Assembly: GCA_964368985.1 (NCBI GenBank)
Contig: CAYJDW010000002.1
Coordinates: 28,171-92,170 of the forward strand
DNA: 64,000 nucleotides
From: an uncultured Myxococcales bacterium
GTDB taxonomy: Bacteria > Myxococcota > UBA727 > JABDBI01
Direction of reading: 5' to 3'
How positions within the stretch are numbered: the stretch's first letter is position 1; every line of letters starts with the position of its first letter. The position numbers and the translations under genes are program-made. The notes beneath the pieces are model-generated. The model searched no databases. It was not told the origin of the DNA and saw nothing but the letters and a program-made list of their open reading frames with translations. Positions 33,191-33,326 of the stretch are shown here, in pieces.

Positions 33191-33326
33191 CTCCTCGCCC
33201 GCTTGCGGGAGAGGCTAGGGAGAGGGTGGAGAGACATAAACCTGACTATTTTAATACATCCTTCGTTTAAGTTTCTCCACCCTCTCCCCAGCCCTCTCCC
33301 GCAAGCGGGAGAGGGAGCGTGGTGCC
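33191..33326. mobile_element. MITE/BIME-like element: two ~45-bp inverted arms (ctcctcgcccgcttgcgggagaggctagggagagggtggag) around a ~40-bp spacer
   Basis: The arms are near-perfect reverse complements. Each arm also contains the cccgc-ttgc-gggag REP hairpin. It lies between the convergent serS and GST genes and creates the spurious ORFs 33070-33333 and 33203-33466. Confidence 0.7.

Follow-up and report, generated by a model that had tools for sequence, protein, structure and literature searches.

The region considered here (the window) is a 64-kb stretch from an uncultured, low-GC (~45%) Myxococcota bacterium. Its nearest relatives, judged by SerRS, are Myxococcota MAGs at 84% and 74% identity, and a 1.25-Mb JGI metagenome contig (3300056831 Ga0558120_00034) contains a stretch that matches the window at 99.9% identity. 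The neighbouring genes in the window are housekeeping genes, and no transposase, RAYT (PF01797, Y1), IS or DUF559 gene was found in 83 kb made up of the window and 18.7 kb past its ends. Other contents were observed along the way. At 24227-31358, a 1012-aa protein with a PLD domain is encoded behind two ABC exporters, of which one has a C39 peptidase domain; these genes could be a bacteriocin-type export cluster unrelated to the repeats described below. An 887-aa ORF at 35696-38359 is built of about eight tandem units of 180-190 nt with CGNG..D.GE.CDDGN motifs and encodes a cysteine-rich repeat protein for which no Pfam hit was recorded. The 1.25-Mb JGI contig carries a HicA/HicB toxin-antitoxin pair (L233:5704-6296) that is missing at that place in two contigs of the same species (L234, L235).

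Dispersed between the genes of the window is a family of short palindromic repeats. Its members are two inverted pairs (B and D), a perfect palindrome (A), a lone unit (C) and a relic (Table 1). An initial annotation, made from the letters of the sequence, had described an intergenic family of REP hairpins at five places, and copies were confirmed at each of them. The perfect hairpin that it put at about 13281 is copy A, the single arm near 54397 is the weaker unit C, the inverted-pair elements near 33191 and 56003 are B and D, and the relic near 35461 is a half-unit. The core CTCNCCCGCTTGCGGGNGAGG, with up to 3 mismatches allowed, gave eight matches, all within A-D, against 0.00 expected from 100 dinucleotide-preserving shuffles of the window. 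The G-rich tail GGCTGGGGAGAGGGTGGAG gave four matches in the window against 0.02 expected. A generic detector of pyrimidine-rich hairpins with 9-nt arms returned exactly six core hairpins in the 64 kb and no others. According to the annotation, repeats unique to this window would have spoken against its reading. They were shown to occur outside it: a further single arm lies 4.3 kb beyond the window (L230:15741-15790), again between convergent genes, and three more arms, a pair and a single one (L207c), were found in L207, a contig of another organism. The density of the family amounts to six loci and one relic in 82.7 kb (the window and 18.7 kb past its ends). A pattern scan for the long form gave 0 matches in genome contigs, 1 in metagenome contigs (L207) and 0 in viral contigs, and a literature search with the sequence strings of the repeat retrieved no relevant paper.

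Table 1. Repeat copies in the window, their parts and gene contexts, and matches to model R1, the covariance model built from E. coli BoxC.
Feature	Positions	Strand	Description	Context
Copy A	13281..13324	.	perfect 44-nt palindrome, 21 + 2 + 21: GCACCACACTCCCTCGCCCGC-TT-GCGGGCGAGGGAGTGTGGTGC	46 nt past SpoU methylase stop, 67 nt ahead of ABC ATPase gene; both minus strand
Copy B, whole	33182-33326		two inverted arms round a 23-nt AT-rich centre	between convergent genes: serS (stop 34 nt away) and GST (stop 31 nt away)
Copy B, left arm	33182..33241	+	5' flank, 10-bp hairpin CCTCGCCCGC-TT-GCGGGAGAGG, G-rich tail CTAGGGAGAGGGTGGAG, then AGACATAAAC	
Copy B, spacer	33242..33264	.	AT-rich; not common to D or the L207 pair	
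Copy B, right arm	33265..33326	-	unit reads on the minus strand; sole arm in this genome with four G3 tracts	
Relic	35451..35471	+	GCACTACAACTCCTCTCCCGC; 5' flank and left stem arm only; identified by comparison with the other arms	starts 2 nt past pseudouridine synthase gene stop
Copy C	54390..54434	-	single weaker unit without G-rich tail; core hairpin 54401-54422	between convergent sigma-70-family gene and 274-aa gene
Copy D, whole	56002-56199		inverted pair; 79-nt arms, 82% complementary, 40 nt apart	between 564-aa gene stop (56224) and 208-aa gene start (55903); both minus strand
Copy D, left arm	56002..56063	+	hairpin, tail, CGACAAAAAC	
Copy D, spacer	56064..56138	.	partly self-complementary; without DUF559 similarity	
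Copy D, right arm	56139..56199	-	second, inverted arm of pair D	
R1 match, B left arm	33182-33231	-	26.6 bits, E 1.9e-4	
R1 match, B right arm	33275-33321	+	31.4 bits, E 1.6e-5 (best)	
R1 match, D left arm	56004-56053	-	24.5 bits, E 5.5e-4	
R1 match, D right arm	56148-56197	+	25.6 bits, E 3.1e-4	

The anatomy of the unit was derived from all arms of the window, L230 and L207 aligned in one orientation. The repeated unit was first given as ~45 bp; the alignment sets it at ~65 nt with the form (GC)ACCACAACTCC-TCGCCCGC-TT-GCGGGAGAGG-CT-GGGGAGAGGGTGGAG-AGACATAAAC. Its first part is a 5' flank, (GC)ACCAC(A)ACTCC. Next comes a pyrimidine/purine hairpin of 10-11 bp, CCTCNCCCGC-TT-GCGGGNGAGG, whose stem has one conserved mismatch; a CT linker then leads to another purine block, GGGGAGAGGGTGGAG, and the last part is AGACATAAAC. 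A second copy of the purine arm (GGGGAGAGGG) comes after the hairpin. Copy A is made of the 5' flank and left stem of the unit, mirrored. In B and D two units stand tail to tail, in the order hairpin-tail, spacer, lead-hairpin. Their spacers, initially put at ~40 and ~100 bp, measure ~23 nt in B and ~40-75 nt in D, according to the arm ends chosen. [quoted passage not shown]

Pairs B and D fold into hairpins of ~55-80 bp. Folded as single strands, copy A reaches -47.9 kcal/mol (z -8.9), the two strands of B -96.8 and -99.7 kcal/mol (z -11.6 and -12.2) and D -111.6 kcal/mol (z -12.6); folding is weak for copy C (z -1.7 to -2.8) and for the single long arm beyond the window. Like REP/REPIN sequences, the family consists of short imperfect palindromes that occur both singly and as inverted doublets forming a long hairpin. 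No Rfam family reached its gathering score on the window repeats. Matches to plant and animal miRNA precursors over 33190-33315 and 56011-56190, of up to 49.5 bits, all stayed below gathering and were set aside as artefacts, because any long perfect hairpin produces them. The canonical G-quadruplex (G4) motif (four tracts of three or more G, loops of 1-7 nt) is present in one of five long arms here versus 21 of 22 copies of E. coli BoxC. G4 formation is therefore not what this lineage conserves, and the G4 was ruled out as a conserved feature of the lineage.

The unit has a counterpart in E. coli. The BoxC repeats of that species (Bachellier and co-workers, cited in PMC2267715) number 22-32 copies of ~56 bp; for K-12, Petrillo et al. 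(PMC2267715, supplementary file 69) list 22. The consensus of these 22 copies, CCCCTCACCC-TAA-CCCTCTCCCC-ARA-GGGGCGAGGGG, is the reverse complement of the architecture of the window arms, with the stem mismatch at the same position. A covariance model (R1) was built from the 22 E. coli copies alone and run unfiltered over the window. The four long arms took ranks 1-4 in the 64 kb at full model length (24.5-31.4 bits, E 1.6e-5 to 5.5e-4). The next ranks (E 0.1-0.6) were held by A (0.12) and C (0.23), matched over the hairpin part only, and the relic at 35451-35471 was not retrieved. Since a model that knows only E. coli sequences retrieves the four long arms as its top matches, the window family is of BoxC type. 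It is firmly supported that the family is a BoxC-type, REP-like repeat acquired by this lineage, present as single 3' intergenic units and as tail-to-tail dimers. The initial assignment to REPs stands as to size and the occurrence of singles and inverted pairs, but the 5' GTAG tag is absent and the covariance model places the units with BoxC. BoxC sequences have also been described, without that name, as the HPG1/HPG2 'G-quadruplex-hairpin-duplex switch' motifs near 3' ends, and Kaplan et al. (2016; PMC5100583) showed that the E. coli motif can interconvert between hairpin and G4 in vitro.

Sequences of this kind are widely distributed. An exact-match scan found the core in at least 120 stretches of IMG/VR, mostly in GC-rich contigs. 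The general form among the IMG/VR matches listed is CCCTCNCCCGCTTGCGGGNGAGGG-NNN-GGGGWGAGGG; some of them are long perfect palindromes, and some are plus/minus pairs. A BLAST search with a synthetic consensus located the core in plasmids of Rhizobium, Sinorhizobium, Azospirillum, Klebsiella and Aeromonas. Of 5426 complete E. coli genomes, 5404 carry it, at a median of 16 places per genome. One E. coli site is the nrdA-nrdB spacer; in K-12, the annotated 11-aa yoaM adjoins, and possibly overlaps, the BoxC copy there (L210:3351-3386). BoxC-type cores are nearly identical across distant phyla, unlike REPINs, which are lineage-specific, and a common mechanism is therefore called for.

The location of the copies agrees with that of BoxC, which is intergenic and near 3' ends. 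All of A-D were found to be intergenic, as the annotation had stated, and to lie 7-46 nt past a stop codon. B and C stand between convergent genes; A, D and the relic stand between tandem genes. The repeats also give rise to the spurious ORFs that had been suspected, at 33070-33333 (-), 33203-33466 (+) and 56025-56282 (+).

The same sites in related genomes are free of the family. Comparison loci for sites C and D were obtained through homologues of the 274-aa protein that lies between them. Site D in the window is a 320-nt spacer that holds the 198-nt element. In a relative at 80% identity (L238/L239) the spacer measures 106 nt and keeps a promoter-like block (atttttgaaa...atttgattgctatt) with no element; exact insertion boundaries are not definable because the D spacers align only in this block. 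In MAG_886 (L236:8470-9380) site D is occupied by ~900 nt of unrelated, AT-rich inserted sequence that contains a 136-aa ORF, and at site C of L236 the genes overlap with no spacer. The serS 3' site, which holds B in the window, has a TGTC-type repeat instead in the sister MAG (L127) and no repeat in a more distant relative (L128). The BoxC model gave 0 matches at E <= 1 in 64 kb of relatives (71-80% protein identity). The empty orthologous sites and the absence of the family from these 64 kb indicate that it was gained or expanded in the window's own lineage, within which B, C and D are identical in contigs of strains at 99.7-99.9% identity. The pattern at the orthologous sites would fit mobility.

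How such a family arose can be read in several ways. The initial annotation took the copies for REPs or REPINs mobilised by a RAYT, an IS200/IS605-type Y1 transposase, encoded elsewhere in the genome. The GC-rich units do have the size of REPs, occur singly and as inverted dimers with long hairpins, and lie after genes or between convergent genes; their features match the descriptions of REPINs (PMC3116915, PMC3337134) and REP dimers (PMC3733652). Even so, we judge mobilisation by a RAYT improbable. The flank CTAC, CCAC, CAAC or ATAC precedes the hairpin, so that the strand that reads GTAG or GTGG has its tag 3', the mirror image of GTAG REPs; with the flank so placed, the family does not belong to the GTAG REPs. 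The units match BoxC, a class without reported RAYTs, the 83 kb contain no Y1 transposase, and to our knowledge no link of BoxC-type repeats to a RAYT has been described. Their near-identical cores across phyla also differ from REPINs, which a preprint describes as lineage-specific and vertically inherited (10.1101/2022.05.22.493013). Classical MITEs, internally deleted copies of a DDE-type IS with terminal inverted repeats and target-site duplications, are a very improbable source. What holds of the MITE-like structure proposed in the annotation is the long inverted termini of B and D and the AT-rich middle between them. The arms, however, also occur singly (C, the L230 copy and L207c), every arm forms a hairpin by itself, no internal sequence is common to the middles of B, D and the L207 pair, and the window contains no IS. 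The target-site duplications that the annotation proposed to look for were not seen as direct repeats flanking B or D on direct reading of the sequence, the element boundaries being inexact. Given the single arms, the unrelated spacers and the lack of a visible duplication, the pairs are dimers of a REP-like unit (REPIN-like) and not MITEs with a defined core.

The copies could also be structures selected by the host for a regulatory role and without mobility: bidirectional terminators, stabilisers of mRNA 3' ends, or a switch between G-quadruplex, hairpin and duplex. Stable hairpins close behind stop codons, half of them between convergent genes, are what such a role would call for, and the E. 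coli motif, present in canonical G4 form in nearly all BoxC copies, switches between hairpin and G4 in vitro, all members lying near 3' ends (PMC5100583). As a full account of the family this is nonetheless unlikely. No T-run was seen after hairpins A-D on reading the sequence, and a terminator scan of 33000-33500, the region of B, passed over the repeats and reported one unrelated site only. Four G3 tracts are kept in one of the five long arms of this genome. The ~65 nt that are conserved include unpaired flanks, more than a terminator needs, and the same sites work without the element in relatives. A regulatory role and a mobile origin are mutually compatible, and neither excludes the other.

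Spread of the units by an enzyme acting in trans is the reading we prefer, and a candidate for that enzyme is suggested by gene neighbourhoods outside this genome. The product of the E. coli gene ycjD, 117 aa long, belongs to DUF559 and is predicted to be a Vsr-like PD-(D/E)XK nuclease (PMC1189080). The gene was found to end inside a BoxC copy, with a second BoxC 200 bp off (L209:1500-2110, fabI-sapF region), and at one IMG/VR locus a DUF559 gene lies between two copies of a BoxC composite. A survey that worked from the gene outwards covered 20 loci with ~300 kb from five phyla (L209, L211-L229). By eye, BoxC-type repeats stand beside the gene in 6 of 6 IMG/VR loci and in 13 of 13 loci of diverse plasmids and replicons (Azospirillum, Klebsiella, Sphingomonas, Synechocystis, Picosynechococcus, two Deinococcus, Neisseria, Shinella, Sinorhizobium, Pseudanabaena, Photobacterium and Methylobacterium). 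At each of the 20 loci such repeats bracket the gene. The hosts include Proteobacteria, Cyanobacteria, Deinococcota and viral contigs, and the repeat variant beside the gene differs by lineage. Of the 103 generic hairpins in the 20 loci, 45 are no more than 250 nt away from the DUF559 gene, as compared with 5.7 expected (binomial p = 4e-29), and the generic detector was positive in 18. In 13 of the 20, sequence of the upstream flank recurs in the downstream flank as an inverted or direct repeat of 42-143 nt, far above local controls. At one of the loci (L214) the order is hairpin-tail, gene, lead-hairpin, which is the geometry of pairs B and D minus the gene.

The association can also be seen in the proteins. 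A collection of 5.8 billion proteins holds at least 7988 DUF559 homologues at E <= 1e-10, of which the best 120 were taken; 113 of these have a recognisable core. The ORF runs into translated BoxC (PHPNPLPxGERG, SPxSGRG and similar) in 50 of these 113 top homologues (44%), versus 4.5-5% of control ORF termini. One homologue has a solved structure (3HRL).

Some of the surveyed loci have features of their own. In two Deinococcus (L222:9900-10420, L229:9900-10420), inverted repeats of 61 and 71 nt enclose the DUF559 gene in a unit of ~500 bp, which sits inside the hpa operon in one species and inside the paa operon in the other. This unit looks like a very small mobile cassette. Regular arrays of BoxC-like hairpins were observed beside or near DUF559 in Neisseria gonorrhoeae, with a period of ~280 nt (L223:900-2900 and 10600-11200), and in Photobacterium, with a period of ~60-150 nt (L227:10380-11950).

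Seen from the repeat, the picture is different. Among 120 motif-bearing IMG/VR loci, a tblastn search with YcjD found DUF559 in one; the association therefore runs from gene to repeat, and not from every repeat to a gene. Clustering of the ORFs beside the motif in 120 IMG/VR loci brought out phage structural genes as the sole recurrent group, with no transposase. A DUF559 HMM run over 193 kb (the window, its extensions and the relatives' loci) detected no gene or remnant, the D spacer included, and the best 120 of the at least 7988 homologues include none from the 1.25-Mb JGI contig that matches the window. For this genome the link to DUF559 is therefore one of analogy only. A search of openly available full texts found no paper that links BoxC and DUF559; a prior description is possible.

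On the observed anatomy of units and dimers, the kinship with BoxC, the placing past 3' ends, and the lack of the family at orthologous sites and in 64 kb of sister-lineage sequence, we consider the following reading a probable one, if by no wide measure: the copies form a family, specific to this lineage, of palindromic units of BoxC type, a third REP-like class beside GTAG and CGTC, spread in trans, with DUF559 as the best enzyme candidate. Units alone or as tail-to-tail inverted dimers could extrude as long hairpins in single-stranded DNA or RNA. Being non-autonomous, they would spread within the lineage through a hairpin-recognising enzyme supplied in trans, and would persist where they do no harm, just past stop codons. 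Once transcribed, the hairpins may also protect or end mRNAs. The candidate enzyme would be a DUF559/YcjD-like Vsr-fold nuclease, by analogy with the loci surveyed, and a RAYT is the weaker candidate. As a general pattern the link between DUF559 genes and BoxC-type repeats is strong; for this genome it is unproven.

A broader proposal is put forward more tentatively. BoxC repeats and DUF559 nucleases might together form a widespread repeat-nuclease partnership, the PD-(D/E)XK counterpart of REPIN-RAYT, of which the window copies would be gene-less derivatives. The nuclease, of ~110 aa, would either mobilise BoxC repeats or home into them; the association could equally reflect a gene that homes into pre-existing repeats and does not spread them. 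In vivo, DUF559 has been studied in one protein, VsrA of Caulobacter, which was interpreted as a mismatch-repair nuclease (PMC12907096). If the partnership is real, the BoxC repeats of E. coli, unexplained since the 1990s, gain a cognate protein, and the ~500-bp inverted repeat-gene-inverted repeat of Deinococcus in the hpa and paa operons is one of the smallest autonomous elements. The window alone is ordinary: a new dimer-forming repeat of BoxC kind in an uncultured Myxococcota that causes spurious ORF calls. It is the bracketing of DUF559 genes that makes the nature and the mover of BoxC directly testable, and E. coli offers a single ycjD, ~16-30 BoxC copies and genetics at hand.

The preferred reading, units of BoxC kind spread in trans with DUF559 as candidate enzyme, can be set beside systems that are already known. 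Homing endonucleases with a Vsr fold (the EDxHD family, I-Bth0305I) provide a precedent for a selfish Vsr-like nuclease that promotes mobility (PMC2677866, PMC3239194). These enzymes sit in introns and inteins and target coding sequences, whereas the DUF559 genes are free-standing between repeats.

REP/REPIN-RAYT systems were reportedly treated by Nunvar in 2010. They are described by Bertels and Rainey (2011; PMC3116915). Like REPINs, the window units are short GC-rich palindromes, present singly and as inverted doublets with long hairpins, and lie extragenically after genes. In the wider BoxC class, moreover, a single small nuclease gene is bracketed by repeats as the RAYT is by REPs. The differences are that the window units lack the 5' GTAG (GTRG) tag, that their core is common across phyla, and that the gene linked to BoxC elsewhere encodes a PD-(D/E)XK nuclease of Vsr fold (DUF559) and not an HUH Y1 transposase.

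The CGTC REPs (Di Nocera et al., 2013; PMC3733652) are a superfamily of REP-like sequences, mostly dimers, with no known transposase. They are characterised by a terminal CGTC/TGTC tag, an 8-9-bp stem that starts with AT, and a CCA tail (PMC3733652). The window family shares with them its REP-like nature and its tendency to form dimers, and a TGTC-type dimer stands at the serS 3' site of the sister MAG. In that MAG an inverted dimer, TGTC-ATCCTCGGG-CTTGA-CCCGAGGAT, of the CGTC class of Di Nocera 2013, was observed where the window has B (L127:7380-7600). Measured against the published description, the window arms are without the CGTC/TGTC tag, the AT start of the stem and the CCA tail.

E. coli BoxC is the known system with which the window family has its kinship, and the two differ in several respects. 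Loop and stem end are GC-TT-GC in the window and C-ARA-G in E. coli, and the 3' flank is different. The conserved unit of the window is longer (~65 nt), most of its copies are tail-to-tail dimers, the G4 motif has been lost in most of its arms, and the host is a low-GC Myxococcota as opposed to an enterobacterium. What the two have in common is the lead block CCCTCNCCC, a linker of 2-3 nt, the hairpin CCCTCTCCC(C/G)-loop-GGGNGAGGG, the position of the stem mismatch, and an intergenic location near 3' ends.
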